Assembly: GCA_965237955.1 (NCBI GenBank)
Contig: OZ250169.1
Coordinates: 1,056,001 to 1,120,000, forward strand
Source: Candidatus Marinacidobacterales bacterium
GTDB taxonomy: Bacteria > Acidobacteriota > Vicinamibacteria > Marinacidobacterales > SMYC01
Length of the DNA: 64,000 nt
Direction: 5' to 3'
How positions within the stretch are numbered: position 1 is the first letter of the stretch; every line of letters begins with the position of its first letter. The notes beneath the pieces were generated by a model. That model made no database searches and was not told the DNA's origin. It saw only the letters and a program-made list of their open reading frames with translations. Shown here in pieces: positions 3,423-23,010 of the stretch. The position numbers were made by a program, and so were the translations under genes.

Positions 3423-4033
3423 TTGTCCGACTCGGACCGACGTAAGCCTAACGAAGAATCGGGAGATCCCAACAAGATGTCGCGACGGGAAGAATATTTC
3501 GAAGGCGCCACACTGTCACCCGACGAAGTGACGTTCCAGCGAGAAGGGCTTCCGGATGACTACCGCATGCGCTACGAAGAAGACCACTACGTCGACGAGC
3601 TCGTCGCCGCGGGAAGTATGCCCCAGCTCCGGCTCGTCCCCGTCAGCGAGATCGAAGGCGGCTTCGGCAGTGGTGGTGAAAGCCTGGACGGCCTCATCGA
3701 CTCGATCCAGGCGTACGGCGTCCTGCAACCTTTGTTAGTACGAAGGCTCCGAGGTCGCTACGAGCTACTCGCCGGCTCCAAACGCCTGGCTGCCGCTGTG
3801 AACGCAGGTCTCAAAGAAGTCCCCTGCCTCGTCCACGAGGTCGACGACGTCGAAGCGCGTCGTCTCGCCGAGGCAGCCAATCGACGAGCCAGCCGCACGG
3901 CCGTGGCGTCGAGCTCCTCGCTTCAATGGAGTACGGACGCGATGATTCTCGTCGCAGGAAGCCTCAACACGATCCTTTCGACGCTCGGCCTCTTGGACAA
4001 ACCCGACAGCTCGCTTCGCGACCGCGTCGCCGT
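3423..4033 (+). pseudogene. 5' half of a ParB-N-domain protein broken by IS5 insertion and inversion
   Basis: SIQAYGVLQPLLVRR...YELLAGSKRLAAA..GLKEVPC (ParB/Srx fold); ends at the target sequence CGTCGCCGT (4025-4033). Confidence 0.85.
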
Positions 4034-4785
4034 TGCCTTGGTGCACAACTCCGATAGAGGCCGAGAGCTCGCTTGGCCCCGACTCCCATCATCCGATCAT
4101 CTCGCTATCAGGCATCCCGAGCGCCGTCATCGTGTTGAGAATCTTGCACCCGATCCTTGCCTCGACTCTCTGTGCCGCCAACCCTCTCGCTCGCATCGCT
4201 GAGCCCACGATAGCCTTCGCCACTCTGCTCGTCGACACACAGATGGAGCTTGCGATAGTCCCTGCTCTTTGGTGCTCTGCGCAGCTGGCCGGCGTGGACA
4301 GCGAGACCGCTGCTGTCGATCAAGATGTGCAACGGCGTCTTCTGCTTGTCTTGGTAGAAGGGGACCTTACCCAGCTTCGCCTTGCGCCTCGAGATCGTGG
4401 TGTGATCGGGCACATCATTGTCTAGCTTCATCAGAGCGAACAACGATCGCAGCAATCCCTCGCTCTGCCTAGATGACAGATGAAACACCATGCCCAGGGT
4501 GACAGCCGTCTCGATGGCGTGGTTCGAGTACTTACGTTGACGGCCCGGTTTCCTCCTCCTCGGCCGGGGCGCGTCCCAGTTCACAAGCTTGCCGGCGGTG
4601 AGCGAGATCCAGACGGTCAGGCTCCCACGGTTGCGTAGACCCGCCTCATATTCACGCCAATTCCTCACGCGATAGGCCTTCTTCACATACTTCCGCTGAG
4701 TGCGTTTGAAAATGCTCATGGGGAACCTCGAATCCGTGAGTAAAGGACAATTGTGGACCGAGATCGCGAGTTGTGCACCAAGGCA
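4034..4785 (-). mobile_element. IS5-family (IS903-like) element with a 335-bp internal deletion
   Basis: TIR TGCCTTGGTGCACAACTC; 752 bp versus 1087 bp for the full copy at 16475-17561. Confidence 0.92.
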
Positions 4786-4893
4786 GCTTCGCGGCGGTAA
4801 TAGTTGAGCAAGCCGCCCAATCGTTTGCGACATCGCACATTCCCGTCGAGACTGCCCACGCGCTCGTCCGCTTCGATCAACGCGTTTTCCAAT
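4786..4893 (-). pseudogene. rve integrase C-terminal remnant
   Basis: Reverse strand reads LENALIEAD...RCRKRLGGLLNYYRREA, matching the C-terminus of 55221-56291. Confidence 0.7.
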
Positions 4894-4934: not shown

Positions 4935-6653
4935 GCCTCTCCTGCCATTTCAGTGGATCCTCTCGAGGGTGAGACCGCCACAGTTTAGGTAGACGAGACT
5001 GATGAGAGCTTCGGCAGAGTGGAGTCCAAAGCTGCGGTGGCTCAGCAGCCGGATTTTGTTGTTCATTCCTTCGAGTCGGCCGTTGCTGAGTCTCCACGTG
5101 ACCCACGCGATGACGCCATCGAAGTGGCTGCGGATCATCTTCGCCGCGCGTTTGACGGGCTCTATCCTCGAGCTCATAGCGCGCCGCAGCCATCCTCGGA
5201 GAAACTTCTTGGCCCATGTCTCGGTTTTGTAGGTGTAGAGGTCCATGAAGTCGTCGCGCAGAAGCATGGCGCGGTAGAGGCGACGATTAGCTCGCACCTG
5301 CTCGCGGAGCACCCGTTTGTCTTTCGCGCTGCGGTTGTGTTTGGCCTTGAGAAGGGGAAACTTGGTGTTCTTGAGGTTGCGCCGGGCAGTCCCTTTGAGC
5401 TCGCGCACCAGCTCGCGCCGGGTCTTATCCACGGCCTCGTTCAGATGCTTGACGATGTGGAAGCGGTCAAAGATCACCCGTGCCTGAGGAGCCTTTTTGC
5501 CGACGACAGTTATGTACGGCTCCCACATGTCCATGCTGACCGCTTCGAGCTCCGCGGCTCTTTGTGGTCCGAGCTTGCGGAAAAACCGCAGCAGCGTCTT
5601 GGCCTTGCGCTCCTTTCCCGCCCAGACGACCCGGCCGCTGAGATGGTCTATTACCACTGTTAAGTACTTGTGGCGTTTGCGGTAGCTGATCTCGTCCATC
5701 CCAATCACCCGCAATCCATCGAGCTCGCGCCGCTCATCCCGCTGCTCGGCAACCACTCGCTGGATGATCCGTCGCACCGAACGCCACGTCACTCGGAAAT
5801 AGTTCGCTACGGCGCTGACGTCCGTCCTCTGTGCCAGCCACGCTACCTCTTGTTCGAAGCTTTTGGTAAAGCGGCTTCCCTTGTCGGCCCAAGGCACCTT
5901 TTCTCTGACCACTCCACACCACCGACATACCACTCGTCGGATCGAGTAGCGAAGATAGGTCCGGACTCCGAACAGGTCCAAGTGCCGCCAGTAGCGATTG
6001 TAGCGATCTTTGTTCTTGCGGACCTTTCGTCCGCAAATCCCGCACAGAGGCTTCCTCCTCCGTGGTACTACATCCACCACCACTCTGGCTTTGTCCGCCT
6101 GGAAGTGGAAACCTCGGACCCACAGGCCTTGCAATCCGATGAGCTTGTTGACTAACGTAGTAACGCGCATCGCGGGAACGCTCTTTTCTCTTTCGGGAAA
6201 AAAGATTCTAGCGTTCTCGCCGATGCGCATCTACACATGGCTTACCCTCTCAACCCACGGGCCTCACCAAATGCCACTGCCCCTCAGCGGGAGACGAGGC
6301 TGTGGGAAACGCCCCCACGGTTCTGGTCGTTCAGACCTTGCTCACGACTGAGTTCTCTTCGAAGCCTGGAAGGGCGTTTTCCATAGCCTCCACTAATCGA
6401 GCCCCCCCTTCCTTATTCCATATGAATTAATCTTTCTTGTATATATATCAGGAGGGGCCTGTGGGCGCTCGTGGGAAACGCGAAGCGTTTTCCAAGCGAT
6501 TGTGGAAAACGCCGCTCCACGTTTGTACGTGCTCACAACCTTTCCCTAAACGCCTCTCTCGCCCGGAGTTTCCGGCGTTTTCCACAATCGCGGCAGCGTC
6601 CATAGGCCATGCCCTCCAACACAAATCAGATCCCCCGAAACGACAGGAGAACC
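4935..6653 (-). mobile_element. ISL3-family element, copy 1
   Basis: IRs GCCTCTCCTGCCATTTC/GAAACGACAGGAGAACC; 8-bp TSD GTATTTTT at 4927-4934 and 6654-6661. Confidence 0.95.
4950..6230 (-). CDS. ISL3 transposase
   Basis: CxxC zinc finger, GMDEIS, SMDMW, FDRFHIV, SNGRLEGMNNKI. Confidence 0.95.
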   Translation of the reverse strand: MRIGENARIFFPEREKSVPAMRVTTLVNKLIGLQGLWVRGFHFQADKARVVVDVVPRRRKPLCGICGRKVRKNKDRYNRYWRHLDLFGVRTYLRYSIRRVVCRWCGVVREKVPWADKGSRFTKSFEQEVAWLAQRTDVSAVANYFRVTWRSVRRIIQRVVAEQRDERRELDGLRVIGMDEISYRKRHKYLTVVIDHLSGRVVWAGKERKAKTLLRFFRKLGPQRAAELEAVSMDMWEPYITVVGKKAPQARVIFDRFHIVKHLNEAVDKTRRELVRELKGTARRNLKNTKFPLLKAKHNRSAKDKRVLREQVRANRRLYRAMLLRDDFMDLYTYKTETWAKKFLRGWLRRAMSSRIEPVKRAAKMIRSHFDGVIAWVTWRLSNGRLEGMNNKIRLLSHRSFGLHSAEALISLVYLNCGGLTLERIH

Positions 6654-6756
6654 GTATTTTTTTTGACTCAATGTATTCTCCCATTTAATGATAGTTGTGT
6701 GAACATTGTTGTGGAACCCAAATAGTTATTTCATCTCTCAGATAAAGATCTCACGT

Positions 6757-8841
6757 TTACCTTAGGTATCTGTCAAACCATCTGACTATGTGCTGTTGCC
6801 TCTCCACTATGTGTTTGGGCCCTTTGATTCCGTGACCTTCTCCGGGGAAGCTGACGAACTCGACGACTCTATTCAGCTTCTTCAATGCTATGAAGAGCAT
6901 TTCAGCCTGCTCAATCGGGCAAACCCAGTCCAGCTCGGAATGGATGAGCAAGAGCGGCGTCTTCATATTCTTGACGTAGGTGATGGGGGACTTTTCTATG
7001 AACATCTGGGGGTCATCCCACGGTTCCTTCATCTCAGAGATCTCATGGGGCGAACCATGGTAGCTGAAGTGGTTGCTCATACTCGCCATCGAGATGGCCG
7101 TCTTGAACCGGTCCGTGTGCGCTATGATCCAGTTCGTCATGAAGCCGCCATAGGATCCGCCTGCGACCCCCAGCCTCTCCGGGTCGACGAAGGGATAAGT
7201 CTCGATAACATAATCTATGGCCTCCATGATGTCCCGGTAATCCCGATCACCCCAGTGGTCTGGGGCCTCAGCTGAGCGCACGAATAAGATGTCAGCTGCG
7301 AAGGATTCTCCGTACCCGGTACTGCCCCTATAGTTCGTGTAGACCACAGCAAAGCCGTGCTCCGCCAACACCTGGTAACCACGCCTCAATCCATATCTGT
7401 ATCCGCCTCTTGGCCCACCGTGAATAAAGCTGACCATCGGGTACTTCTCACCCTCTTTGAGTTCATGGGGCTTGACTATCCATCCCTGGACTTTGACGCC
7501 GTCGCTGGCGGTGAACCAGAACTCCTCGGGCTCGACAAGCCTCAGCTTCCCCAGGAGGGTCCTATTCATCTCCGTCCTCTTCGCTTGACCACCGTCGTCC
7601 AGGATCCAGAGCTCGCTGGGAGTCATGGGACCCGAGGCGTTGAAGGCGAAGACCTTCCCGGCCTCGTCCATGGTGAAGGAGCCGATGTTCATCTTTCCCT
7701 CCGTCAAGGCCTCGACCTCCCCCTCAAGGCTCACCCTGTGAATATGACGGGTGCCGTGGTTGGGGAACTTGACGTAGACGTACTTCGAGTCTGGGGACCA
7801 CTTGACCGAGGCTCCTCTGGCGACCGTCCGGTCGAAGTCAGCAGTGAGGCACTTGGGCTCGCCGCCCTTTACTGGCAAGACCCAGATGTCGGCATTTCTG
7901 TACACGTGGCGCCTGTGGGAATCACGCTCCTCCATGACGCGTCCACCGAAAGCGATGTACTCCCCATCCGGAGACCAATCCAGACTTTGTATACGGGCTC
8001 CCCGCCCCCTCCATAGGACTTCTGGATCTCCTCCTTTTGAGGAGATGGTGTAGATACGCCCGCGAGAGAAAAAGACTACGCGGCTGCCATCGGGGGACCA
8101 GTCGACCATATTTATGTTGAACTCTCCATCGGTCAGCTGCTTTACCTGACCGCTTTCGGGCTGGACTGAGAAGAGATGCCTCCACCTATCATGTATGAAT
8201 TCACGTTCCGATGGGGTCTTGTAAGGATAGCTTCTGATGATCTTGACGTCGCTGCCCTTCGCTCTCTCGCCTTTGAAGACGTTTGAGAGAAAAAGTATGG
8301 TCTTGCCGTCGGGGGACCAGGTGGGGCGCTCAACGCCTTCCTCTACAGAGGTAAGACATCTTGCCTCACCGCCGTCGGCAGGGATCACGAATATCTGCAT
8401 CCCTGGTTTATTCTCCTCGCTCAAACGATCGGAGAGGAAAAGGATGGTCTTCCCATCTGGGGACCATCTGGGATGGCTGTCGTTGCCGTTGCCGTATGTA
8501 AACTGTTTCGGCTCTTTCTCATCCAAAGGGAGGAGCCATATGTGGCTGTGGTATCTGTCCTCTTTCACGTTCGCGGTCGTGTAAGTGAAGAGAACTTTGG
8601 TACCGTCAGGGGATATCTGTGGATCCGATACAGGTTGCCCAGGAAAAATTGGCGTGATCCTGTAATCTTCCAGTTTTTTCATTCCCAACGCTTTGTTAGG
8701 GTTATCAGGATTGCCAGGTGGGTTTTCAGGCTTGCCTCTTGTTGTTCTTACTTGGCCTTCACTAAAGTCTATAAAAACCAAAGCAAAAGCCAGGAAGGCC
8801 ACCAATCCAAAAAGTTTCAGATTATGGATTTTTTTCATCAT
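6757..8841 (-). CDS. S9-family peptidase (PD40 beta-propeller plus alpha/beta hydrolase) with a fused ~50-aa secretion leader
   Basis: WSPDG repeats, IHGGP, nucleophile GGSYGG, HSELD, GEGH; first ~50 aa shared with 15032-16411. Confidence 0.92.
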   Translation of the reverse strand: MMKKIHNLKLFGLVAFLAFALVFIDFSEGQVRTTRGKPENPPGNPDNPNKALGMKKLEDYRITPIFPGQPVSDPQISPDGTKVLFTYTTANVKEDRYHSHIWLLPLDEKEPKQFTYGNGNDSHPRWSPDGKTILFLSDRLSEENKPGMQIFVIPADGGEARCLTSVEEGVERPTWSPDGKTILFLSNVFKGERAKGSDVKIIRSYPYKTPSEREFIHDRWRHLFSVQPESGQVKQLTDGEFNINMVDWSPDGSRVVFFSRGRIYTISSKGGDPEVLWRGRGARIQSLDWSPDGEYIAFGGRVMEERDSHRRHVYRNADIWVLPVKGGEPKCLTADFDRTVARGASVKWSPDSKYVYVKFPNHGTRHIHRVSLEGEVEALTEGKMNIGSFTMDEAGKVFAFNASGPMTPSELWILDDGGQAKRTEMNRTLLGKLRLVEPEEFWFTASDGVKVQGWIVKPHELKEGEKYPMVSFIHGGPRGGYRYGLRRGYQVLAEHGFAVVYTNYRGSTGYGESFAADILFVRSAEAPDHWGDRDYRDIMEAIDYVIETYPFVDPERLGVAGGSYGGFMTNWIIAHTDRFKTAISMASMSNHFSYHGSPHEISEMKEPWDDPQMFIEKSPITYVKNMKTPLLLIHSELDWVCPIEQAEMLFIALKKLNRVVEFVSFPGEGHGIKGPKHIVERQQHIVRWFDRYLR

Positions 8842-8891
8842 GTCCTCCTTATTTTAAAGGATAGGAAAAATCATAGCTTCGCTGATGGGTG

Positions 8892-9010
8892 CCTGTGCCA
8901 ATTTTCGCAGGGTGCATGAGAGAAGGTTCCATTTCAGTACCTCGTGGAGCATAGCAAAGCCCAAGAGCGGCAGGTCGAGGACCGCGGATCGAGTTTATGA
9001 AAGGCACAGG
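8892..9010. mobile_element. 119-bp MITE with CCTGTGCC termini and an outward-facing extended -10
   Basis: CCTGTGCC at 8892 and GGCACAGG ending at 9010, similar to rve-element ends; TGCTATGCT on the minus strand (~8948-8956) points at the S9 gene. Confidence 0.6.
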
Positions 9011-9154
9011 AAGCCGCTCGGCAGGTCAAGTAAGGGCAGTTACTTCAGCTCGCGTTCGATCGCTGCTCGATCGCGCCGTCAAGAGGGCAAGTGACGCCTC
9101 CGGGATACAAGAAACACTGGCACGCTTGAGTTTTGGTGTTAGACCATGAGATTT

Positions 9155-9236
9155 GGATGGCGGGACCGGTATGAATCGAGAGGTTCACGTACCGTTCTGA
9201 GGGGGGCTGGGGTGAAATTCCCAGGCCTACTCACCT
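9155..9236 (+). ncRNA. Group II intron 3' remnant (domains V-VI)
   Basis: GACCGGTATGAATCGAGAGGTTCACGTACCGTTC (DV with GAGA tetraloop and AC bulge) followed by GGGGCTGGGGTGAAATTCCCAGGCCTACTCACC (DVI); no RT ORF seen. Confidence 0.85.
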
Positions 9237-9400
9237 TTCGAATCGACTCTGATTGTCCTCCACAGACCGTAAAAGCCGACCAGAAACCGATCATGCAACC
9301 AAGAACAAAAAAGTTAAGCTACCTCACCTATGACTTACTCCTAACAGCTGCTTTTGTCTGAAGCCGTAAAAGCTTGCAACGTTATGTCATTGATGTAAAG

Positions 9401-10915
9401 CTAATATGGATTCGACGGCATCATATCCCACGCTTGAAGTGTCGGAACCTTGGTCAGGCCACCCTTCGAGAACAAGACCACGCCTTGGCTGTCTGTGCGC
9501 CTCGGATAGATGCGTCGCATCACCGCCTGGCGATTGTTGGCAAAAACCTCGATTACCGACTTGTCCACAAAAACTCGCAGTTTTAGCGGCTCACCGGGCT
9601 TCAATTCAAACGGTCCCGCTTCCACTGACTTCGGCCCTTCGCTCAGGCTCGACTCAGTGGTGTCGACCTTGAGTTTTTTCTCGTTCGCATCGTAAAAGAC
9701 AAGCGTCTCCTCTTCACCGCCCGGCGAGGCACAGACCTTCACACCGAACTGCTCGGCACCGTCGGGTATCATTTCAATCAACAGTTCAATGCTGTTTCCG
9801 CGAATGTTCTCCAATGGCATCTCGCTGTCGGCCTGAATAGTCAAATTCTTAATCTCCTTCGGATTGTATCGCAGCACTTCCAGTTCCTTCGGCGGCCACA
9901 TCCGCAGCATGCCGTCTTCTCCCAACGCTAGGACACGAGGCAGGCTGTACGTGCCCAACCATCCGCTGGTTGGCTTCTTGTCCATACCCCAGGCCTTGTT
10001 AAAAATCCAGGCCCACATGATCCGGCGTCCCTTGTCATCCAACAAACTCTCCGGGGCAAAGAAGCTCCTGTCCACCCAACTCATTTGCTCATGGTATTCG
10101 GGATAGAACTTCTCGTTCTTCCACTGGCCCAGGTAATAGCGAGCACCAAGCGGGTGACTGATACACAGAAGCATGTGTTTATTGCCCAGCTTGAAAAAAT
10201 CAGGGCAGGACACGTCTTCGTTGATGTCTACACCCTCAAGACTATGGGCCATCAAGTCACCGACATACTTCCATTCGCCGTCCAGGCTGTCAGACTTGGC
10301 GATTGCGGGTCTTTCCCCGCCGAAGATGGCGTAGTACGTATTGCCCTCAACCCAGCCGTGCGGGTCCCATGACCGGTACTTGCCATGATGAGGGTCACCC
10401 TCACTGGTTTCTGGAGTAATAGGATTTGAATCCAGCTTCTTCCAGTAGTTCAGGTCATCATCGAGGGCAACTGCCATAGCGTTGCCCTGGCCTACCTGGT
10501 GATAAACTATAGTAGGCACGCCTTCTTTGTTGATGAAGGTGTTTCCGCTGAATATGCCGTCAATCAGTCCTGTTGGGTGGTGACGCCAGTGAACAAGGTC
10601 TACGCTTGATACGTGGCCCCAGCTTGATACGTGGCCCCCGTTCTGCCCCTTGTAGTCCTGGAAAATATAGAAAAGATGGTATCGACCTTTCCAGAATATG
10701 GCTCCGTTGACATCACCGCCTTCCCAAGCAACAAAGTGGTATCCCGGCCGATATGGGTCTTGCAACAGCTCTTCCCTCAAGGCCCGAGTGTTCCGCATCA
10801 TTTCGGACAGATTTGCTTGCACCCCCGCCGTGCTACGATCGCACCGCGCCAGAATGACCGCCACAATGGAGAAGAATAAGAAAATCAAAAAGGCTTTTAA
10901 ACTCGTTCTTTTCAT
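9401..10915 (-). CDS. Glycoside hydrolase family 32-like secreted protein
   Basis: RPGYHF..GDVNG, WGHVSSVDLVHW, WDP, SCPDFF, SLPRVL, LRVFVDKSVIEVFAN; N-terminal signal peptide. Confidence 0.88.
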   Translation of the reverse strand: MKRTSLKAFLIFLFFSIVAVILARCDRSTAGVQANLSEMMRNTRALREELLQDPYRPGYHFVAWEGGDVNGAIFWKGRYHLFYIFQDYKGQNGGHVSSWGHVSSVDLVHWRHHPTGLIDGIFSGNTFINKEGVPTIVYHQVGQGNAMAVALDDDLNYWKKLDSNPITPETSEGDPHHGKYRSWDPHGWVEGNTYYAIFGGERPAIAKSDSLDGEWKYVGDLMAHSLEGVDINEDVSCPDFFKLGNKHMLLCISHPLGARYYLGQWKNEKFYPEYHEQMSWVDRSFFAPESLLDDKGRRIMWAWIFNKAWGMDKKPTSGWLGTYSLPRVLALGEDGMLRMWPPKELEVLRYNPKEIKNLTIQADSEMPLENIRGNSIELLIEMIPDGAEQFGVKVCASPGGEEETLVFYDANEKKLKVDTTESSLSEGPKSVEAGPFELKPGEPLKLRVFVDKSVIEVFANNRQAVMRRIYPRRTDSQGVVLFSKGGLTKVPTLQAWDMMPSNPY

Positions 10916-10957
10916 TTGTTTAATCTCCTTTTAGATTTTCAAATTACCATGCCCTGG

Positions 10958-11071
10958 GGCGTTGGTGTATAAATCCGGACAACCCTAAAGGAATCAGCAA
11001 GTTACGTTTTAGGGCAAAAGTTAGCGGAGTCAATGGAATCAACGACTTACCAGTATTCATGCACCAACGCC
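10958..11071. mobile_element. 114-bp IS5/IS903-type MITE
   Basis: TIR GGCGTTGGTG(T/C)AT(A/G)AAT at both ends; lies 42 bp upstream of the GH32 start. Confidence 0.75.
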
Positions 11072-11265
11072 TGAACAACTTCATCAATGCGACCCTCGCC
11101 GCGACCGTGGCCCAAGCGGAGACACTGGCTTTTTTCGAAGATCGTCTGAAGGATGTAGACCTAGAGGCGCTGCGCCAACGTGTCGAAGCTTTCATGAAGC
11201 GCACGGAGTCAGGCGACGAACCTTCGATCGAAGAACTACGGAAGGCCATGGGCGAACGGTTCTAG
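11072..11265 (+). pseudogene. 3' fragment of a hypothetical gene cut by the MITE
   Basis: The start of ORF 11059-11265 lies inside the MITE TIR; the rest looks coding. Confidence 0.4.
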
Positions 11266-11292
11266 CGCAGCGCGTAGGATCAAAAAACTCAA

Positions 11293-11720
11293 TTACCTGA
11301 GGATTGTCGCCAGCACCTCTCCCGCGCCGTCCTTGATGTTCAACCGTCCATCGGTGGCGTGGGTCGACGGGTTCATCAGAACGACTTCGGTAGCGTGACC
11401 GGCGCCGTTCGAGAACAGCGGAAACATCAGCTGCTCACGCGTTTCGTCCGACGCTTCCTGCAACGGCACGTCGGAGAAGACGAGCTCGCCGCGCGCGTTC
11501 GTCACTTTCTTCAGAAGCGTCAGCCCGACTTCGCTGTCGTAAAAAATCTGCAGCGAGCCCCTAAGCGCCCCGATTCCGAATGTATGTTCGAGATCGAGCA
11601 CCATCTTCTTCCCGAGCGGTACGATGCGCTCGTAGCGGCTGCGATGGTTGCCGTCGACGTCGAAATGGTTCCAGGTAGATCGACGTCCGCTGCGGGCTCG
11701 GCCACACCGCAAAGCACGGC
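11293..11720 (-). pseudogene. C-terminal fragment of a larger hypothetical protein
   Basis: Coding-like stretch (QLMFPLFSNGAGHATEVVLMNP) with no credible start; abuts the truncated amidohydrolase. Confidence 0.4.
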
Positions 11721-11839
11721 CGCGAGCAAGAAACTGGATAGGAGCTCTATCGTCCCTCACCTCCAAGGAATTTCCGCTCCGAGACTAGTCGCGAGACCCG
11801 CGCAGCGACTCGCGCGCGCGCCGCGGGATTGGGTGGAAT

Positions 11840-12839
11840 CGGTGGAACGGCGGAAAGTCGAGCTCGCCTCCCGGGAATGCCTGTCGAAGGGCATCACCAG
11901 CTTTCAAGACGCAGGCTCGTCGTTCGCGACCATCATCTCTTGAAGACGATGGCGGAAGAGGGCAACCTCGACCTGCGTCTGTGGGTCATGATCAGCGGGT
12001 CGAGCGAAGAGCTCGCGGTCAAGCTGCCTCACTACAAGATGATCAATGTCGGCGATCAGCGGTTGACGGTCCGCGCGATCAAGAGAGGGATCGATGGCGC
12101 CCTCGGCTCGCACGGTGCCTGGCTTCTCGAGCCGTACGCGGACATGCCCGAGAGTACGGGTCTCAACACGACGAGCCCCGAAGTCATCTCCGAGACCGCG
12201 GAGCTCGCCATCCGCCACGGGTTCCAGCTGTGTGTTCACGCCATCGGCGACCGCGGCAACCGGGAAACGCTGGATATATTCGAGAGTGCCTTCGAGGCAA
12301 ATCCGGACAAGACCGACCTGCGCTGGCGCATCGAGCACTCGCAACACCTCCATCCCGACGACATCCCCCGCTTCGGCGAGCTGGGCGTCGTCGCGTCGAT
12401 GCAAGGGATCCACTGCACGTCGGACGGACCCTGGGTCGTGCTCCGTCTCGGTGAGAAACGTGCAAGAGAAGGCGCGTATCCGTGGCGCACGCTCTTGGAG
12501 ACCGAAGCCGTCGTTGCCAACGGCACCGATGCGCCGGTGGAAGACGTGGATCCGATCGCGAGCTTCTACGCTTCCGTGACCCGGCGGATGAAAGCGAACG
12601 GCGAGCTCTTCTATCCCGAGCAGCGCATGACGCGGGAGGAGGCGTTGCACTCGTACACGCTCGCTCCCGCGTGGGCCGCGTTCGAGGAGGACATCAAAGG
12701 CTCACTCGAAGTCGGGAAGCTCGCGGACGTCACCGTGTTGTCGAAAGACATCATGACCGTCCCCGAGGAGGAAATCTGCGAAGCGAAGGTGATCTACACG
12801 ATCGTGGGCGGCGACGTGAAATACGAAGGGCGGCGTTAG
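11840..12839 (+). pseudogene. YtcJ-like amidohydrolase (Amidohydro_3), 5'-truncated and frameshifted
   Basis: KGITSFQDAG (other frame), DGALGSHGA, VHAIGDRGN, RIEHSQ, GTDAPVE, GSLEVGKLAD. Confidence 0.88.
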
Positions 12840-12859
12840 GCTGGAAACGCAAAGAAATC

Positions 12860-12938
12860 AACGCAAAGGCGCAGAGACGCAAGGGCGCAAAGTCCGGCTA
12901 GGCTACGCTCTCTTTGCGCCCTTGCGCCTCTGCGTTTG
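12860..12938. repeat. REP-like long hairpin / bidirectional terminator candidate
   Basis: CGCAGAGACGCAAGGGCGCAAAG...CTTTGCGCCCTTGCGCCTCTGCG between convergent genes. Confidence 0.65.
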
Positions 12939-12944
12939 CTTTTC

Positions 12945-13497
12945 TTAGCTTGCGTCGGTGGGGAGGGTCATTGTCAGGCGGCATCCACCTGCGGCGGTTG
13001 GGGCGATCTCGAGTCTTCCGTTGTGGAGCTCGGCCGCGCGCTTGGCTGCTAGGAGCGACACTGCTGCGCCGAAGCCGCCCGGACGCTCGTCCCAGTGGGG
13101 GTCGAACCAGTGGGACCAGGACGATGTCGGCATACGCACTGCGTCTTGGGACACGGTCAAGTTGACGGTGTTGGTGAGCTCGTTGAGCGTCATGTCGACC
13201 GAGAGCCTTCCGCCCCGGCCCGAACGCATGAACGCAAGAATCGTTTCGATAGCGCCCGAAATCGCCACCGCCACGAGCTCTTCGTCGGCCCGGATCGGGC
13301 AAGCGCTCAGGCTTCTCGCGTGGAGCTCGATGCCGAGTAGTCCACGCTCGTCCTCCGAGGCGGTGAGCACGTTCTTTAGAATCGTTGCAGCGTCGAACGG
13401 TCGTCGCGTGAGTGCCGGCTCCGCCCGCAGGATCTCGAGACCGCGCATCAGCCGATTGGCCCTGAGCGCTTCGGCGCGGATGAGACCAACGGCGACG
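12945..13497 (-). pseudogene. 3' half (histidine-kinase ATPase-like domain) of the gene starting at 3423
   Basis: Begins with the second copy of CGTCGCCGT (reverse complement at 13489-13497); GGFGAAVSLLAAKRAAELHNGRLEI...GGCRLTMTLP. Confidence 0.85.
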
Positions 13498-14249
13498 TGC
13501 CTTGGTGCACAACTCGCGATCTCGGTCCACAATTGTCCTTTACTCACGGATTCGAGGTTCCCCATGAGCATTTTCAAACGCACTCAGCGGAAGTATGTGA
13601 AGAAGGCCTATCGCGTGAGGAATTGGCGTGAATATGAGGCGGGTCTACGCAACCGTGGGAGCCTGACCGTCTGGATCTCGCTCACCGCCGGCAAGCTTGT
13701 GAACTGGGACGCGCCCCGGCCGAGGAGGAGGAAACCGGGCCGTCAACGTAAGTACTCGAACCACGCCATCGAGACGGCTGTCACCCTGGGCATGGTGTTT
13801 CACCTGTCATCTAGGCAGAGCGAGGGATTGCTGCGATCGTTGTTCGCTCTGATGAAGCTAGACAATGATGTGCCCGATCACACCACGATCTCGAGGCGCA
13901 AGGCGAAGCTGGGTAAGGTCCCCTTCTACCAAGACAAGCAGAAGACGCCGTTGCACATCTTGATCGACAGCAGCGGTCTCGCTGTCCACGCCGGCCAGCT
14001 GCGCAGAGCACCAAAGAGCAGGGACTATCGCAAGCTCCATCTGTGTGTCGACGAGCAGAGTGGCGAAGGCTATCGTGGGCTCAGCGATGCGAGCGAGAGG
14101 GTTGGCGGCACAGAGAGTCGAGGCAAGGATCGGGTGCAAGATTCTCAACACGATGACGGCGCTCGGGATGCCTGATAGCGAGATGATCGGATGATGGGAG
14201 TCGGGGCCAAGCGAGCTCTCGGCCTCTATCGGAGTTGTGCACCAAGGCA
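13498..14249 (+). mobile_element. IS5-family element with the same 335-bp deletion, inverted relative to 4034-4785
   Basis: Same TIRs, same 752-bp length and same deletion junction (GGCGAAG^GCTATC). Confidence 0.92.
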
Positions 14250-14256
14250 GTGGAGA

Positions 14257-14334
14257 GGTACTTTCGAGTGAACGAACGGATTTCGTTCATTCCCCGATGA
14301 CCTCCGCCCACACGGGCGGTACCATTGCTGTCAA
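14257..14334 (-). repeat. ~78-bp two-hairpin dispersed repeat (copy 1 of 3)
   Basis: Near-identical copies at 31712-31788 and 59272-59348. Confidence 0.85.
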
Positions 14335-14423
14335 GTTGGGAACGTGGACCACAAGATATAGTCGTAGCTGCACCCAACCTGACCACACGATATTGTGGAG
14401 CGTTGTCTCAATTTGACAATACC
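14327..14423. mobile_element. Miniature element with IS6-like ends
   Basis: GCTGTCAAGTTG...CAATTTGACAATACC mirrors the ends of the IS6 at ~35092-35897. Confidence 0.55.
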
Positions 14424-14680
14424 CCGCCGAGCGCTGGATCGGGAGTTGTCGTCGAGAGATGCTCGAGCACGTGGTCGTCCTGAGCGAGCGGCACCTCGTC
14501 CGACTCGTGCTCTCTTACCTCCGCTACTATCACCAAGACCGTGGTCACTTGGGTCTCAACAAGGACACCCCCAAACGAGAGACCCGTCACGCCACGACCG
14601 TCATCGACGGCGAACGTGATCGCGCTGCCACGAGTCGCTGGACTCCATCATCGCTACGAGTGGCGCGAGGCCGCATAGCG
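14424..14680 (+). pseudogene. rve integrase C-terminal remnant
   Basis: LEHVVVLSERHLVRLVLSYLRYYHQDRGHLGLNKDTP, followed by a degenerate C-terminus. Confidence 0.8.
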
Positions 14681-14923
14681 CCCGTTGCCGGTCGTGACGG
14701 GTTCACGTCGCCAGAGCTCTTGATGTTTGCATCCCCCGCTCTTGAACCCGGTGACTCGTGTGCTCCCGACGACGTCACGGGGCGTCGATGCCTGCTTTCG
14801 TCGTGGGTTTCCGTCCGGACTAATAATGATGAGCCACAGGTATCGTTGTCTCCCGTCGAGCGCGGCCCGAATTATGCCTGCACTCACCTTCTGCTTCCCT
14901 GAAGGATTAGCCACACGTCGCTT

Positions 14924-15031
14924 CTGCCGCTCTTGGGCTTCTGCTATGCTCCAGCACGGACGGCATGGACATTTCTCTCATGCACGCGCTGAGAAAATTG
15001 GCGCCGGTACGCATCCTTTAAAAAGGAGGAC
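14924..15031 (+). promoter_or_regulatory. Putative promoter, 5' UTR and RBS shared with the S9 gene
   Basis: CTGCCGCTCTTGGGCTT(C)TGCTATGCTCCA...CTCTCATGCAC...GAAAATTGGC...ATCCTTTAAAA..AGGAGGACATGATG also occurs as the reverse complement at 8836-8973. Confidence 0.65.
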
Positions 15032-16411
15032 ATGATGAAAAAAATCCATAATTCGAAACTTTTTGGGTTGGTGGCCCTCCTGGCTTTTGCTTTGGTTTTT
15101 ATTGGTACAGACTTTATTGAAGGCCAAGTAAGAACAACAAGAGGCAAGCCTGAAAACCCACCTGGCAATCCTGATAACCCTAACAAAGGAGGCCATAAAA
15201 CCCAAGACCGCCCAGCAGACGTTGTGTTCTGGAATTGTTGTGAGGATCCTAGCGGAGGAGATCGTTCAGCGGTTAGTGACACATCTCCCCAGATAGATTC
15301 ATCTACTCAAACAAATACGTCACAATTTGCGAATGCGAAAGAAAAATTAATTAGCATGGGATTCAACGTACCTGGTGAATCACATAAGCAGGAGTTTGTA
15401 GGAAGCTTAGATATACCAATTGACATCAAAGATAGATTTTTGGAAATCTTAGACGCTATAACTAGCGTGTTAGGCAGCTATCCTAATTTTGTCTACGTCG
15501 CTTACAATCGAAATGGCACAGAAGCGGATGCCAAGCCTGTTTTTGACAGGTTGTCTGAAATTGATTTTTCACTAGATGGATTCACTATTGCCGAATTACA
15601 AAGGAAAGCAACCTGCCTTGGAGGATCCAATGCTGGGGAACCCAGAACAGTCACAACTGAACCTTATAGTGTATGCATTCAACATTTAGCTTTTATTCAA
15701 AATCCTTTTAATCATCCACCTCAAGAAACTAAAGCGCACCCAGACAAAATTTTAGGTAGGCGTGTACTTAATTATGCACATGAATATTTTCATCATTACG
15801 AACGAGCTCATGCCTTAGATAGGGGACTTAACTATCAAGGAGATCTAGAAAATCCTCAAACAACCGTGGATGCTCCACCGTGGTGGACAGAAGGAGCGGC
15901 AGTAGCATTCCAAAATGCATGGTATAAAGCAAACTGGAGTACCCTATCCTTTTTTGAAGGTAAAAAATGGGGAGATGTAAAAGTTAGCATTATGTTCAGT
16001 GATGATCCAGGAGTTTATAGAGAGTTTAGACGTGGCATTATGGATGCCCCTGGCAGGAAAAGAGAGGGTTGTACCCCAAATTTTAAAATGGGACCCTATA
16101 CCGACAGATATGACACCGAGCGAGCTCCAGATGCTGATCCATGTCGGGCTTTCATGTTAGCTGTACCATATATCGCATCGTTGACTTCGTACAAAACAGT
16201 GTTAATTGATATACCTCAAGATTACTATGATCTTGGTTTTTGGGGAGCTTTTGAAAAGCATGTGGGTATGAACAAACAGGAATTTTATGATAATTTTAAT
16301 GCCTTTTTGAGGTCTGGTAATCCAGAAGATGAACCACCTGAAGGTTGGGCTCCTCCTGAAGGCGATATAGCATCATATGCTAACTTTCTAGAAATAGTCC
16401 CTAAAAAATAG
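15032..16411 (+). CDS. Secreted hypothetical protein with a zincin-like metallopeptidase motif and the shared leader
   Basis: AHEYFHHYE (HExxH) and downstream PWWTEGAA; strongly AT-rich relative to its flanks. Confidence 0.75.
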   Translation: MMKKIHNSKLFGLVALLAFALVFIGTDFIEGQVRTTRGKPENPPGNPDNPNKGGHKTQDRPADVVFWNCCEDPSGGDRSAVSDTSPQIDSSTQTNTSQFANAKEKLISMGFNVPGESHKQEFVGSLDIPIDIKDRFLEILDAITSVLGSYPNFVYVAYNRNGTEADAKPVFDRLSEIDFSLDGFTIAELQRKATCLGGSNAGEPRTVTTEPYSVCIQHLAFIQNPFNHPPQETKAHPDKILGRRVLNYAHEYFHHYERAHALDRGLNYQGDLENPQTTVDAPPWWTEGAAVAFQNAWYKANWSTLSFFEGKKWGDVKVSIMFSDDPGVYREFRRGIMDAPGRKREGCTPNFKMGPYTDRYDTERAPDADPCRAFMLAVPYIASLTSYKTVLIDIPQDYYDLGFWGAFEKHVGMNKQEFYDNFNAFLRSGNPEDEPPEGWAPPEGDIASYANFLEIVPKK

Positions 16412-16474
16412 GCAATTGGTTTTTGGGACCGCATTGAGTTTGGCTCATTCTTATTAAATTTCCACCTTCTGACC

Positions 16475-17561
16475 TGCCTTGGTGCACAACTCGCGATCTC
16501 GGTCCACAATTGTCCTTTACTCACGGATTCGAGGTTCCCCATGAGCATTTTCAAACGCACTCAGCGGAAGTATGTGAAGAAGGCCTATCGCGTGAGGAAT
16601 TGGCGTGAATATGAGGCGGGTCTACGCAACCGTGGGAGCCTGACCGTCTGGATCTCGCTCACCGCCGGCAAGCTTGTGAACTGGGACGCGCCCCGGCCGA
16701 GGAGGAGGAAACCGAGCCGTCAACGCAAGTACTCGAACCACGCCATCGAGACGGCTGTCACCCTGGGCATGGTGTTTCATCTGTCATCTAGGCAGAGCGA
16801 GGGATTGCTGCGATCGTTGTTCGCTCTGATGAAGCTAGACAATGATGTGCCCGATCACACCACGATCTCGAGGCGCAAGGCGAAGCTGGGTAAGGTCCCC
16901 TTCTACCAAGACAAGCAGAAGACGCCGTTGCACATCTTGATCGACAGCAGCGGTCTCGCTGTCCACGCCGGCCAGCTGCGCAGAGCACCAAAGAGCAGGG
17001 ACTATCGCAAGCTCCATCTGTGTGTCGACGAGCAGAGTGGCGAAGTCGTCGCCGGCGAGCTGACGAGCAAAAGAGCCCGCGATTCATCGCGGGTTGCATC
17101 GCTTGTCGGACAGATCGACAGTCCCATCTCATCGGCCAGAGCTGACACCGCATACGACGCCAGCGGCGTCTATGAGGCGATCGAGAATCACAGCGCTCAT
17201 TGCTCGCCGAGGGTGCTGATACCGCCGCGCAAGGGCGCCCAGCTCGCATCGGGGCCGGCGAGCAGCCGACAGCGCAATCGCAACATTGCAGCACAAGCTC
17301 GGCTCGGCAAACGAAAGTGGCACACAGAATCGGGCTACAGCAAACGGAGCAAAGTCGAGACAACGTTCCATCGCTACAAGGCTATCGTGGGCTCAGCGAT
17401 GCGAGCGAGAGGGTTGGCGGCACAGAGAGTCGAGGCAAGGATCGGGTGCAAGATTCTGAACACCATGACGGCGCTCGGGATGCCTGATAGCGAGATGATC
17501 GGATGATGGGAGTCGGGGCCAAGCGAGCTCTCGGCCTCTATCGGAGTTGTGCACCAAGGCA
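16475..17561 (+). mobile_element. IS5-family (IS903-like) element, full length (1087 bp)
   Basis: TIR TGCCTTGGTGCACAACTC; flanks show no matching TSD. Confidence 0.95.
16541..17506 (+). CDS. IS5-family transposase
   Basis: [48 protein letters not shown]. Confidence 0.95.
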   Translation: MSIFKRTQRKYVKKAYRVRNWREYEAGLRNRGSLTVWISLTAGKLVNWDAPRPRRRKPSRQRKYSNHAIETAVTLGMVFHLSSRQSEGLLRSLFALMKLDNDVPDHTTISRRKAKLGKVPFYQDKQKTPLHILIDSSGLAVHAGQLRRAPKSRDYRKLHLCVDEQSGEVVAGELTSKRARDSSRVASLVGQIDSPISSARADTAYDASGVYEAIENHSAHCSPRVLIPPRKGAQLASGPASSRQRNRNIAAQARLGKRKWHTESGYSKRSKVETTFHRYKAIVGSAMRARGLAAQRVEARIGCKILNTMTALGMPDSEMIG

Positions 17562-19256: not shown

Positions 19257-19991
19257 ATGCGCATTCGATTCGTTTTTGCTCTGCTGGCGGTTGCGATGGT
19301 GGCTCCGCTGGCGAGCGCACAGGAAGAGCCCGACTTTCTGTTCGGCGCTCCCCGGGGTGCGTTCTCCATCCGCGGCGGATACCTGATCGCGTCGGCCAAG
19401 AGCGACATCTATGAGTTCTTGTCGGAGGAGCTGACCATCGAAAGCAATGACTTCAACGCGCTGGTCTTCGGCATCGACGTCGCGCTCGCGATCCACCCTC
19501 GGCTGGATGTGCTCGCCGGCTTCGAGTACAGCTGGACGGCCATCGATTCCGAGTACCGCGAGTTCGAGGAGGACAGCGGCGCGCCCATCACCCAGACCAC
19601 CGAGCTCAGGACGGTTCCGCTCACGGGGAGCATCAAGCTGTACTTGACGCCGCGCGGACGAGAGATCAGTCGTTTCGCGTTCGTGCCGAACAAGGCGCGA
19701 CCTTACGTGGGTGCCGGCGCCGGTCTCATTTGGTATCGGCTCGAGCAGATCGGTGATTTCGTGGATTTCGCCGATCTTTCTATTTTCACCGGCGAGTTTC
19801 GCTCGAGCGGCTTGGGCACGGAGGCACACGTGTTTGGTGGTCTGGACCTCCAGCTGAGCCCCAAGTGGTACCTCTCGTTGGAGGGACGCTACGTCTGGGC
19901 CGATGCGGACCTGTCCGGAGACTTCGTGGGCTTCGACCCCATCGACCTCAACGGCCTCCGGATCACCGCGGGCTTTAGCTACAGTTTTTGA
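19257..19991 (+). CDS. Outer-membrane beta-barrel protein
   Basis: Signal peptide, PYVGAGAG strand and C-terminal GFSYSF. Confidence 0.85.
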   Translation: MRIRFVFALLAVAMVAPLASAQEEPDFLFGAPRGAFSIRGGYLIASAKSDIYEFLSEELTIESNDFNALVFGIDVALAIHPRLDVLAGFEYSWTAIDSEYREFEEDSGAPITQTTELRTVPLTGSIKLYLTPRGREISRFAFVPNKARPYVGAGAGLIWYRLEQIGDFVDFADLSIFTGEFRSSGLGTEAHVFGGLDLQLSPKWYLSLEGRYVWADADLSGDFVGFDPIDLNGLRITAGFSYSF

Positions 19992-20014
19992 GATAGAAGA
20001 CACAGGAGGACGCC

Positions 20015-21184
20015 ATGACGACAACACTCCTATTGGCCTTAGCACTGGCCGGCGCGCCAGGACAAAACGAAGTGGCCAATCTCGACTCACGATGGGTTCC
20101 CTGGCTCGGATGCTGGGAGCTCGTCGACGACCAGCGGCGTGAGCCCCTCATCGGCGAAGCCGATCCCACCCAGGGCCAGGACGTCCCGCTACGCGGGCTC
20201 GTGTGCCTGAATCCAGCGCCCGACGGAAACGGTGTCACCGTCACTACCGTCGCGGGCGGTGAAGCGTTTCTCGAAGAGACGCTCGTCGCCGACGGCGAGA
20301 AGAACCCGTCTGCCAAAGGCAAGTGCAGCGGCTGGCAGCGCACCGAGTGGTCCGCGGATGGCTATCGTCTGTTCACGAGCGCCGAGCTCACCTGCGAGGA
20401 GAACAGTAGGCTGACCGTCTCGGGGCTCAGCATGATGGTGCCTCGGTCCACGTGGGTCGACATCCAAATCGTCGAGAGCAGCGCCGGACGTGCCGTCGTG
20501 ATCCGCCGCTACCGCCCGGCAAACGATACCGAGGTCATCGACTCGGGAGCTCCGGTTCTCAACACCGACCTCAAGATGAAATCGTACCGAAGCCGGCTCG
20601 CGCTCACCAACCCGCTTTCTGCCGACGACATTACCGAGGCTGCCAGCAAAGTCGCGCCCGAAGCTCTCGAAGCCGCGGTGTTGGAGCACGAGGAAGGTTT
20701 CGCGCTCGACGCCGCCGCGTTGACGCGTCTCGATGATGCCGGAGTCCGTCCCGGACTCATCGATCTAATGGTCGCGCTTTCGTATCCCAACCAGTTCGTC
20801 GTCAACGCGGGCTCAGGCGACGGCGCCGGCGGTGGCGGCTTCGCACTCCCCGGCACCTACTACCGCACCGGTTTTCCCTACAGCTATCGAACGCCGTATT
20901 ACGTGACCCCGTTCAGTTATTACTATTGGTACGCGCCACACCATCCTCGATACGTGGTGCGGCCCGTCGCCGTCCCGGAGGTTCGCCAGGGACTCGTCAG
21001 CAAGCGCGGCTACGCGCAAGTCGCACCCAGTCCTACCGGTCGTCGCGCCCGTCATCGCGGCGGCTCCGGCGGCGGTAGTTCCGTCTCCGGTTCGAGCCGC
21101 TCGTCGGGGTCGAGTGGATCGGTCAGTAGCCAGGGCTACTCGCGCGGTGGTTCATCGGGCCGCAGCGCTACCAGGAAGAAGTAA
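20015..21184 (+). CDS. Secreted hypothetical protein with Tyr-rich and Gly/Ser-rich tail
   Basis: GGAGG RBS, signal peptide, WVPWLGCW motif; directly follows the beta-barrel gene. Confidence 0.8.
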   Translation: MTTTLLLALALAGAPGQNEVANLDSRWVPWLGCWELVDDQRREPLIGEADPTQGQDVPLRGLVCLNPAPDGNGVTVTTVAGGEAFLEETLVADGEKNPSAKGKCSGWQRTEWSADGYRLFTSAELTCEENSRLTVSGLSMMVPRSTWVDIQIVESSAGRAVVIRRYRPANDTEVIDSGAPVLNTDLKMKSYRSRLALTNPLSADDITEAASKVAPEALEAAVLEHEEGFALDAAALTRLDDAGVRPGLIDLMVALSYPNQFVVNAGSGDGAGGGGFALPGTYYRTGFPYSYRTPYYVTPFSYYYWYAPHHPRYVVRPVAVPEVRQGLVSKRGYAQVAPSPTGRRARHRGGSGGGSSVSGSSRSSGSSGSVSSQGYSRGGSSGRSATRKK

Positions 21185-21191
21185 GCCGCAC

Positions 21192-21430
21192 CTAACCGGC
21201 ACGTGTGCCGTTGGGGACGGGTGTCTCCGGAACGGCGAGTCTCGGGAGCACGCCGTCGGCGTAGCCGGTGTCAAAGAGCATGCCTTCGGAAATCTCGCCT
21301 CGCATGCGGCGCGGTTTCAAATTCACCACGAAGAGCGCCTGACGCCCTTCGAGCTCAGCCGGGTTCTCGCGCTCTTCTTTGAGGCCCGCGAGGATGGTGC
21401 GCTGGTGGTCCCCGAAATCGACCGTCAGTT
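21192..21430 (-). pseudogene. tRNA-binding (Trbp111/CsaA-like) protein, 3' fragment
   Basis: Reverse strand reads RTILAGLKEERE..LEGRQALFVVNLKPRRMRGEISEGMLFD...PVPNGTRAG*. Confidence 0.8.
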
Positions 21431-21440
21431 TAATGACTTC

Positions 21441-22751
21441 AAGTGGTACCTCTCGTTGGAGGGACGCTACGTCTGGCCGATGCCGTTCTGTCCGAGGACT
21501 ACGTCGGCTTCGACCCCATCGACCTCAACGGCCTCCGGATTACCGCGGGCTTTGGCTATAGTTTTTGAGTAAGATAGAAGACACGAGGAGGACGCCATGA
21601 CGACAGCACTCCTATTGGCCCTAGCGCTGGCCGGCACAAGACGAAGCCGCCAATATCGACTCCCGGTGGGTTCCCTGGCTCGGATGCTGGGAGCTCGTCG
21701 ACGACCAGCGGCGTGAGCCCCTCATCGGCGAAGCCGATCCCACCCAGGGCCAGGACGTCCCGCTACGCGGGCTCGTGTGCCTGAATCCAGCGCGCCCGAC
21801 GGAGACGGTGTCACCGTCACCACCGCCGCGGGCGGTGAGGCGTTTCTCGAAGAGACGCTCGTCGCCGACGGCGAGAAGAACCCGTCGGCCAAAGGCAAGT
21901 GCAGCGGCTGGCAGCGTACCGAGTGGTCCGCGGATGGCTATCGTCTATTCACGAGCGCCGAGCTCACCTGCGAGGAAAACCGTAGGCTGACCGTCTCGGG
22001 GCTCAGCATGATGGTGCCTCGGTCCACGTGGGTCGACATCCAAATCGTCGAGAGCAGCGCCGGACGTGCCGTCGTGATCCGCCGCTACCGCCCGGCAAAC
22101 GATACCGAGGTCATCGACTCGGGAGCTCCGGTTCTCAACACCGACCTCAAGATGAAATCGTACCGAAGCCGGCTCGCGCTCACCAACCCGCTTTCTGCCG
22201 ACGACATTACCGAGGCTGCCAGCAAAGTCGCGCCCGAAGCTCTCGAAGCCGCGGTGTTGGAGCACGAGGAAGGTTTCGCGCTCGACGCCGCCGCGTTGAC
22301 GCGTCTCGATGATGCCGGAGTCCGTCCCGGACTCATCGATCTAATGGTCGCGCTTTCGTATCCCAACCAGTTCGTCGTCAACGCGGGCTCAGGCGACGGC
22401 GCCGGCGGTGGCGGCTTCGCACTCCCCGGCACCTACTACCGCACCGGTTTTCCCTACAGCTATCGAACGCCGTATTACGTGACCCCGTTCAGTTATTACT
22501 ATTGGTACGCGCCACACCATCCTCGATACGTGGTGCGGCCCGTCGCCGTCCCGGAGGTTCGCCAGGGACTCGTCAGCAGCCACGGCTATGCGCAGGTCAA
22601 GCCTCGTCCTACCGGTCGTCGCGCACGTCGTCGCGGCGGCTCGGGCGGGGATGGTTACGTTTCCGGTTCGAGCAGCTCGTCAGGGTCGGGTGGATCGGTC
22701 AGTAGCGAAGGCTATTCGCGCGGTGGTTCGTCCAGCCGCTCCGCTACCAGG
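21441..22751 (+). pseudogene. Degenerate tandem duplicate of ~19863-21177 (barrel 3' end plus hypothetical gene)
   Basis: Direct sequence identity with frameshifts near 21480, 21640 and 21795. Confidence 0.9.
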
Positions 22752-23010
22752 ATGAGGCAGTTTGGAGCTATCCGGTCTCGGCTAGTAACCATAGAATAAC
22801 AGGGAATAACAGGGAATAACAGGGAATAACAGGGAATAACAGGGAATTTGGGCCATTTTTGTGCAGATCCGGCCGTTTTTTGACGTGGCAACCCTCTATA
22901 TTTCAAATGGTTAGATGGCAATTCCCTGTTCCGAAATAACAGGGAATTTCTGATGAAAGAACAGGGAAGTGGAAATCGGCGAACAGGGAATTGAGATGGA
23001 CGAATAGGGG
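22750..23010. repeat. att-like core plus (GAATAACAGG)x5 tandem and dispersed AACAGGGAA boxes
   Basis: Tandem at 22794-22847; further copies and one inverted copy up to ~23010; 30-bp core shared with ~61022-61051. Confidence 0.85.

Follow-up and report, generated by a model that had tools for sequence, protein, structure and literature searches.

The Erp (OspE/OspF/Elp) genes of Borrelia burgdorferi share 5' DNA and a leader peptide, which are joined to unrelated mature proteins (PMC9060444). In ISCR1 and the IS91 family, the oriIS is found downstream of a Y2 transposase; its core is TTCCTAT, and co-oriented foreign genes come after it at variable distances (PMC6218425, PMC13181058, PMC13023784), and for ISCR1 an increase in downstream expression of 13-15-fold is given (PMC6218425). 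Signal-peptide gain in Enterobacterales was ascribed to insertion of a whole N-terminus, with no transposable elements near the N-termini (PMC5952966). Here we describe two homologous stretches, copy A (8692-8973, minus strand) and copy B (14924-15188, plus strand), in a window of 64,000 nucleotides (the whole stretch of DNA that was analysed) from a bacterium of Candidatus Marinacidobacterales, an order placed in the Vicinamibacteria (Acidobacteriota); its genome (G000) is a single contig of 8.13 Mb with 60% GC. Both stretches combine a transposon end with a leader, which continues into an S9 peptidase in copy A and into an HExxH protein in copy B. Our preferred reading, to which we give a probability of about 0.6, is that a reusable front end was grafted onto acquired peptidase genes for export, and that the separate IS91-family end was likely added later and is a possible promoter. 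As a mobile element, the locus represents no new class.

As in the Erp genes, conserved upstream DNA and a leader head unrelated mature proteins. The leader of the window is, however, predicted to be of the signal peptidase I (SPase I) type with Gln at position +1, whereas Erp proteins carry a lipoprotein signal; the genes form chromosomal single-gene islands without a viral contig match, whereas Erp genes are prophage loci; and the leader has crossed a class boundary, with one of its cargos being archaeal-type. ISCR1 is resembled in the Y2 transposase upstream of homologous copies of the end, in the TTCCTAT core and in the co-oriented foreign genes after the end, but here the ends are solo and lack a transposase and a class 1 integron, no fixed tetranucleotide is apparent after them, the cargo is peptidases, and the end is a candidate promoter only. 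By analogy, the locus appears to work like the shared Erp leader combined with an adjacent ISCR-like end, and it is a member of neither system proper. A signal peptide prepended to a formerly leaderless orthologue recalls the Enterobacterales, but the donor family, the join and the reuse with several cargos are visible here, whereas no donor is named in the available part of that study. In the terminal reassortment of type III effectors, which Stavrinides and colleagues are said to have described in 2006, promoter and secretion-signal ends are reportedly reshuffled onto new bodies; the present case differs in its predicted Sec-type signal, its hydrolase cargo and its marine acidobacterial host. 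The Q-rule of Bacteroidetes places Gln after the signal-peptide cleavage site, and in this different phylum 28 of 35 proteins of the leader family have Gln directly after the predicted cut site. Neither the leader nor the locus was found described in the literature searched, which took in few subscription journals and no supplements.

Composition of the repeat

The preliminary description of this DNA regarded transposon end, promoter, ribosome-binding site (RBS) and signal peptide as one 270-bp adaptor placed on acquired genes. The homology of the two copies is borne out by an alignment with 80.8% identity over 292 columns (E 1.6e-75, BLAST in the 8.1-Mb genome); both contain TGCTATGCT, AGGAGG and the leader open reading frame (ORF), and both continue in frame as had been read, copy A into a 694-aa S9 peptidase and copy B into a 459-aa HExxH protein. 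The stop of identity after NPNK applies between copies A and B, but not between copy B and the S9 gene at G000:7307588, which have ten further codons (GGHKTQDRPA) in common. The proposed BLAST search of the whole genome found more than two copies and divided the repeat at the RBS, with seven copies of the end and six of the leader, paired in G000 only at the two window loci. Pairing and spacing are not constant: five of the seven ends in G000 are leaderless, and this end is absent from 12 of the 16 leader genes with upstream DNA available. The repeat consists of two independent parts, probably joined by chance, and is not one unit.

That the end, promoter, RBS and signal peptide move together is in keeping with their pairing twice in G000 and twice in G013 (like G009, another genome of the same family), once of these before a different S9 paralogue, but we consider it very improbable. 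The two window ends are of different subtypes, about 80% alike and each 93-96% like a leader-free copy, the spacing between end and RBS varies between loci, and elsewhere the leader has a longer 5' untranslated region (UTR) of its own. A single portable module is refuted, because in orthologues of both enzymes the leader is present and the end has no match (S9 loci L012 and L015, HExxH loci L014 and L067), the very finding that the preliminary description had named as refuting it, and because the HExxH fusion pre-exists in a contig resembling the donor class; these four loci largely refute the one-unit model. What stands of the adaptor is its RBS, signal-peptide and linker part.

The same junctions as in copies A and B also occur in independent assemblies (P0001, P0003-P0005). 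Contig X2 crosses the oriIS-leader join of copy A with no differences, and a contig of X13 crosses the end-leader join of copy B, from which it differs at 15 positions and by an insertion of 25 nt, the copy B end being about 25 nt shorter than the versions in G013 and X13. These checks were made on assemblies and contigs, all runs being contigs. In favour of an assembly chimera, the genome is rich in insertion sequences (IS) and has 6.2% contamination, but the same fusions recur in two other genomes, in further assemblies and in contigs from other studies, and as far as contigs allow we give a chimera practically no credence.

The leader consensus is MKKxxxLKLFGLVxILxxALVFIGxxFVQGQVKTxGKPDKPPGK. 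By inspection and hydropathy it has a basic n-region, a hydrophobic h-region and a small residue at -1, the N-terminal hydropathy being about 3.1 in leader proteins against less than 1.7 in nearly all leaderless homologues, and the leader proteins are predicted to be exported by Sec and cut before the Gln. No Cys closes the consensus as in a lipobox, and no Pfam or NCBIfam model matched the leader in the proteins scanned. A profile search of 1.84 billion representatives returned 37 matches. After removal of the first 50 residues, the bodies of these matches and of the genome loci fell into six multi-member BLAST groups (HExxH, S9, FG-GAP repeat and three unnamed) and singletons, some of which are short fragments; an absent BLAST match between groups does not prove non-homology. 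In G000 the leader heads four intact S9 genes, one IS-interrupted S9 gene and one HExxH gene; G013 has five leader copies and G009 four, each genome with one HExxH gene among them. The first 96 nt of the HExxH gene are 91-95% identical to those of the four S9 genes, and the UTR is common to them as well. In the sixth G000 copy (3218300-3220520) an insertion of 2.1 kb, with a TTGGTG duplication on its flanks, splits the signal peptide, and the S9 body is cut again early. Phage carriage of the leader genes was rejected, as none of 166 viral candidates was confirmed.

The end had been taken for that of an rve-type element (DDE integrase core). This origin was rejected, since copies of the end at G000:5441116 and 27729 lie directly downstream of C-termini that are 62-65% identical to an ORF of the IS91 family (PF04986), a Y2 (HUH) transposase; neither window copy has such a transposase. 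A remnant at about 14300-14680, which we take to be integrase-like although a 55-aa piece of it had no Pfam match, is a separate neighbour that stops about 165 bp upstream of the copy B end, and none precedes copy A. Copy A terminates in TTTTTCCTATCCTT, a TTCCTAT-type motif resembling ...CTTCCTATACCC of ISCR1, and copy B is without it. The end terminates in TGATTTTTCCTATCCTT, which resembles the ISCR1 oriIS, given as GTGGTTTATACTTCCTATACCC (PMC13023784). TGCTATGCT or a close variant occurs in all nine aligned end copies, whether or not a leader is present. The oriIS-like motif is found 31 times in G000, against one or two times in shuffled sequences; as to a fixed target tetranucleotide (CTTG or GTTC) beside the oriIS, CTT comes next in 17 of the 31, perhaps as part of the element, and the bases after CTT vary.

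Among these 16 leader genes, this end lies upstream of four, another oriIS-like end upstream of three and neither upstream of nine; the CCCCTATC of L015, immediately 5' of the RBS, was left uncounted. A strict oriIS-like motif stands within 100 nt of three of the six G000 leader genes (p ~1e-10 if independent), and one more has a decayed end. The ends adjoin leader genes far above chance and may supply promoters, a role made plausible by analogy because ISCR1 ends drive downstream genes. A contig from an RNA run spans the copy B leader (15016-15213); among the pieces listed none joins the end to the RBS, and contigs cannot show starts. TGTCTATCCTT, which precedes G000:7307588, was rejected as a decayed oriIS, being part of another repeated IS end that is presumably IS110-like.

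The ends might instead be active carriers, with ISCR1-style capture and movement of each gene by way of circles in which oriIS becomes linked to its 5' side, and with the end needed for expression in the new host. In line with this, four end subtypes meet the leader UTR at different points, one subtype-A locus stands before unrelated DNA in G000 (1225435) and before an S9 gene in G013, and the 13-15-fold gain known from the ISCR1 oriIS offers a precedent (PMC6218425). We regard this as decidedly improbable, for nine of 16 leader genes are without an oriIS-like end, inspection by eye of the 330 nt that follow 15 of the genes showed no IS91 transposase, the copy B end lacks the terminal motif, and other IS ends border leader genes too.

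The coordinates of the parts are given in Table 1. Just upstream of the copy A end, at window 9162-9235 (plus strand), lies a group II intron 3' end (RF00029, 43.3 bits), the only Rfam match to reach the gathering score; no tRNA was found. A similar intron remnant stands between another end copy and a fucosidase gene at G000:27.7-27.95 kb.

Table 1. Parts of the two leader genes and their surroundings (window coordinates)
Feature	Position	Strand	Remarks or basis
Copy A: oriIS-like right end, IS91/ISCR-family, subtype A, transposase absent	8857..8973	-	ends ...TGATTTTTCCTATCCTT; contains TGCTATGCT; 96% to leader-free G000:1225431-1225549; 99% to G013 L009
Copy A: AT-rich donor 5' UTR remnant with AGGAGG RBS (8849-8844)	8842..8856	-	sequence
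Copy A: predicted Sec/SPase I signal, residues 1-29 (basic n-region; hydrophobic core of 15 residues; Gln after S-E-G)	8755..8841	-	sequence, family alignments
Copy A: Gln-first Pro/Asn/Lys linker, residues 30-50	8692..8754	-	family consensus GQVKTxGKPDKPPGK
Copy A: ALG (three residues), followed by a complete S9 peptidase of Bathyarchaeota type that begins at its own Met54 (8682)	6757..8691	-	beta-propeller and hydrolase; likely triad Ser563, Asp638, His670
Copy A: AT-rich 3' flank of about 67 bp, common to all four intact G000 S9 paralogues	6690..6756	-	83-97% identical across paralogues
Copy B: right end, IS91/ISCR-family, subtype B, terminal CCTAT motif lost	14845..15019	+	93% to G000:5440924-5441094 (after Y2_Tnp C-terminus); 96% to G013 L010
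Copy B: UTR remnant with AGGAGG (15024-15029)	15020..15031	+	sequence
Copy B: predicted signal peptide, residues 1-31, Gln after I-E-G	15032..15124	+	sequence, family alignments
Copy B: linker, residues 32-62; last ten, GGHKTQDRPA, common to S9 G000:7307588	15125..15217	+	BLAST
Copy B: short spacer, then predicted zinc metallopeptidase domain from ~15317, gluzincin-like fold	15218..16411	+	His250-Glu251-x-x-His254, Glu287

Predicted peptidase cargos and their joins to the leader

The 694-aa protein of copy A matches PF00326 (E 4e-50) and PF07676, and a beta-propeller, an alpha/beta hydrolase and the GxSxGG, Asp and His motifs (at 561, 634-638 and 670) place it among the acylaminoacyl/dipeptidyl peptidases of family S9, so that peptidase activity is predicted. 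Its nearest homologues are leaderless, about 660 aa long and start with MKKLEDY, and those that are named belong to Bathyarchaeota. The window protein reads NPNK-ALG-MKKLEDY, the archaeal-type start Met being kept after the linker. Screening of the 120 best S9 homologues showed a hydrophobic leader at the N-terminus in this clade only (eight flagged, and P0063, called from an earlier start); P0074 exceeds the hydrophobicity cut-off at 2.08, yet begins MKKL. To judge from these comparisons, the cargo is archaeal-type, acquired and normally leaderless. Two different types of leader-S9 join exist, one of which has ten codons in common with the HExxH gene.

The 459-aa protein of copy B (41% GC, motif HEYFH) had no Pfam or NCBIfam match. 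Its H, E, H and E residues, including Glu287, are invariant in 41 aligned sequences, and the domain has 54 homologues with varied N-termini in a marine family, in which the SAR202 cluster and Poseidoniia are named. The structure model has a predicted local distance difference test (pLDDT) score of 85.5. Its best structural match is puromycin-sensitive aminopeptidase (Z 10.3, root-mean-square deviation (rmsd) 4.5, 229 aligned), followed by the M30 peptidase lugdulysin (Z 10.1) and M9 collagenase (Z 9.0), the top rows being M1, M30 and M9 with rmsd 4.5-4.8; Foldseek with the same model gave nothing at E 0.001 or better. The protein is predicted from the model to be a zinc peptidase of gluzincin fold, and both cargos are therefore predicted peptidases. 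P0011, a homologue with 79% identity that lies outside the 37 profile matches, has a different, lipoprotein-like leader with a faint likeness to the one described here.

In a tree of 36 S9 sequences, which omits most of the distant homologues and five leader rows that were near-duplicates, monophyly of the 13 leader-bearing proteins against the 23 others was rejected (p-AU 2.9e-8), because two leaderless proteins, P0064 and P0086, fall inside their group. The two are nested in the segment trees as well, where the leader-bearing proteins otherwise form one group. Identity among the four S9 paralogues is 92-98% over the first 96 nt, 73-79% over the last 900 nt and 83-97% in the 3' flank. Copy A and the paralogue at G000:6423330 agree at 98-100% over about 400 nt and diverge beyond, and copy A and its G013 orthologue L012 are 99.0% identical in the body and 91.7% in the leader. 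Since the leader-bearing S9 proteins are not one clade and leaders are more alike than bodies, grafting or swapping of the leader likely happened more than once, and the pattern suggests homologous recombination between fixed ends together with conversion among leaders.

These data may also be read as one old leader-S9 fusion that was duplicated and diverged fast, the HExxH fusion being a one-off chimera and the nested leaderless proteins losses or mis-called starts, so that no repeated grafting took place. The grouping of leader-bearing S9 proteins with only P0064 and P0086 in three segment trees (support 0.90, 0.19 and 0.85) and the common 3' flank fit such a history, and linker variants could come from deletions between short repeats. 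However, leaders are much more similar than bodies, the two joins differ, and P0086 begins MKKL on a short branch (0.08) inside a clade without that Met. We hold a single fusion to be unlikely, though it deserves more weight than the other alternatives discussed above.

Probable donor class, spread and proposed route

The leader family is concentrated in f77, an AT-rich family of another Acidobacteriota class, where it is found on several unrelated secreted-type proteins in 18 of 82 genomes (20 of 301 in the whole class). Elsewhere it occurred in one of 400 phylum-wide genomes and two of 40 close relatives, a third, weak match covering the linker only. The loci of that class, which we take to be Aminicenantia, mostly have 35-47% GC. 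The L067 contig carries the leader-HExxH gene in DNA of 41% GC, with the full AT-rich upstream region and without an IS91-like end; the neighbour gene on this contig has 86-90% identity with f77 genus g278. Between the L067 UTR and those of the S9 genes in G000, G009 and G013, the match is 87-96%. From this context and the UTR match, the HExxH fusion likely predates the transfer. Between genera, the genes are islands of 93-98% identity in which the match ends at or near the UTR and the stop codon; of the neighbouring segments several are 69-85% identical and others 94-100%. A close S9 homologue was present in one of 96 f77 genomes, at only 46% identity, the ESM Atlas gave no usable match for P0177 and no taxon for the donor, and the sponge-metagenome RNA runs held only 9% of words, which is no habitat evidence.

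In the proposed route, the leader family, which heads several unrelated secreted-type proteins in f77, would have been joined in frame to a marine HExxH domain, a fusion already seen in the f77-like contig with full UTR and no end, and also to S9 genes of archaeal type that had no leader, the archaeal start Met surviving in one of the joins; the fusions themselves are observed, and the way they arose is conjectural. After the first fusion, homologous recombination would exchange S9 bodies between fixed ends and copy leaders among paralogues, and such body swaps and leader copying would account for the high identity of the ends, the low identity of the middle and the mosaic linkers. The finished genes spread as single-gene islands among genera of the Ca. 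Marinacidobacterales family, and differing IS91-type right ends replace the donor upstream DNA at varying points of the UTR, a pattern seen in the genomes whose agent is presumed. Finally, the proteins would be exported by Sec and cut before the conserved Gln, and would digest peptides outside the cytoplasm.

Several points weigh against repeated grafting for export with a promoter-like end. Signal peptide, export, cleavage and the activity of the enzymes are predictions, and placement of the HExxH fusion in the donor class depends on a single 3.4-kb contig. The HExxH domain was found in none of 96 f77 genomes, and neither was a leader-S9 fusion. The leaderless P0064 and P0086, which are known as proteins only, could be leader losses or short gene calls, and one S9 graft would then suffice. 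As to the end, sigma-70 scans of both regions gave no promoter-like site, and the enrichment near leader genes counts paralogues as independent. ORFs follow 11 of the 31 oriIS-like ends, or 8 of 28 without the leader genes against 16.5% at random (p 0.08), and a general use of oriIS ends as gene starts was rejected on this count.

Twenty ORFs in G000 have a low-GC signal-like start, among them a fucosidase and a Vps10/BNR protein, the first 400 aa of which have 66-75% identity with proteins found in 41 of 96 f77 genomes; such starts suggest wider gene flow from the f77 class. The GH32 gene at window 9401-10930 (minus strand) has an AT-rich RBS and signal region, a GC-richer body and an internal Met-Met. 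It begins MKRTSLKAFLI, much as does the 967-aa protein encoded at G000:3749205 (GC 0.36 in the leader, GC3 0.83 in the body); its start is possibly a second grafted leader. This GH32 was found in none of 96 f77 genomes at E 1e-60. Four diverged low-GC lipoprotein-like paralogues of 355-371 aa lie at G000:4146588, 4681175, 5580570 and 8072918, and a low-GC 165-aa secreted-type protein is present in four copies (G000:752981, 2919505, 3182596 and 8081371), identical in the first 160 nt compared. In the window, a secreted-type gene pair at 19898-22857 is duplicated in tandem with about 1576-bp spacing and followed by the perfect 10-bp repeat GAATAACAGG. IS remains are dense (355-1467, 4027-4786, 4950-6230, 13494-14256 and 16471-17560), with DDE_3, several copies of DDE_Tnp_1_5 and ISL3 transposases.

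A broader, speculative extension, which we think doubtful, is that marine Acidobacteriota have a standing route of gene domestication, in which the conserved, Gln-capped leader and its UTR would serve as a landing site where foreign hydrolase bodies, including cytoplasmic archaeal ones, recombine time and again, and solo IS91 ends would act as portable promoters and carriers of the finished genes across classes, as an environmental counterpart of ISCR1. The locus itself presents an unusually readable case of signal-peptide gain, in which one can see the source family of the leader, the join with an archaeal start codon, the reuse with different cargos and the spread from genus to genus. It draws attention to a leader family without a model and to an uncharacterised marine gluzincin-like family, and it suggests a way in which a peptidase that is cytoplasmic in archaea could have become an exported enzyme of an uncultured marine bacterium.

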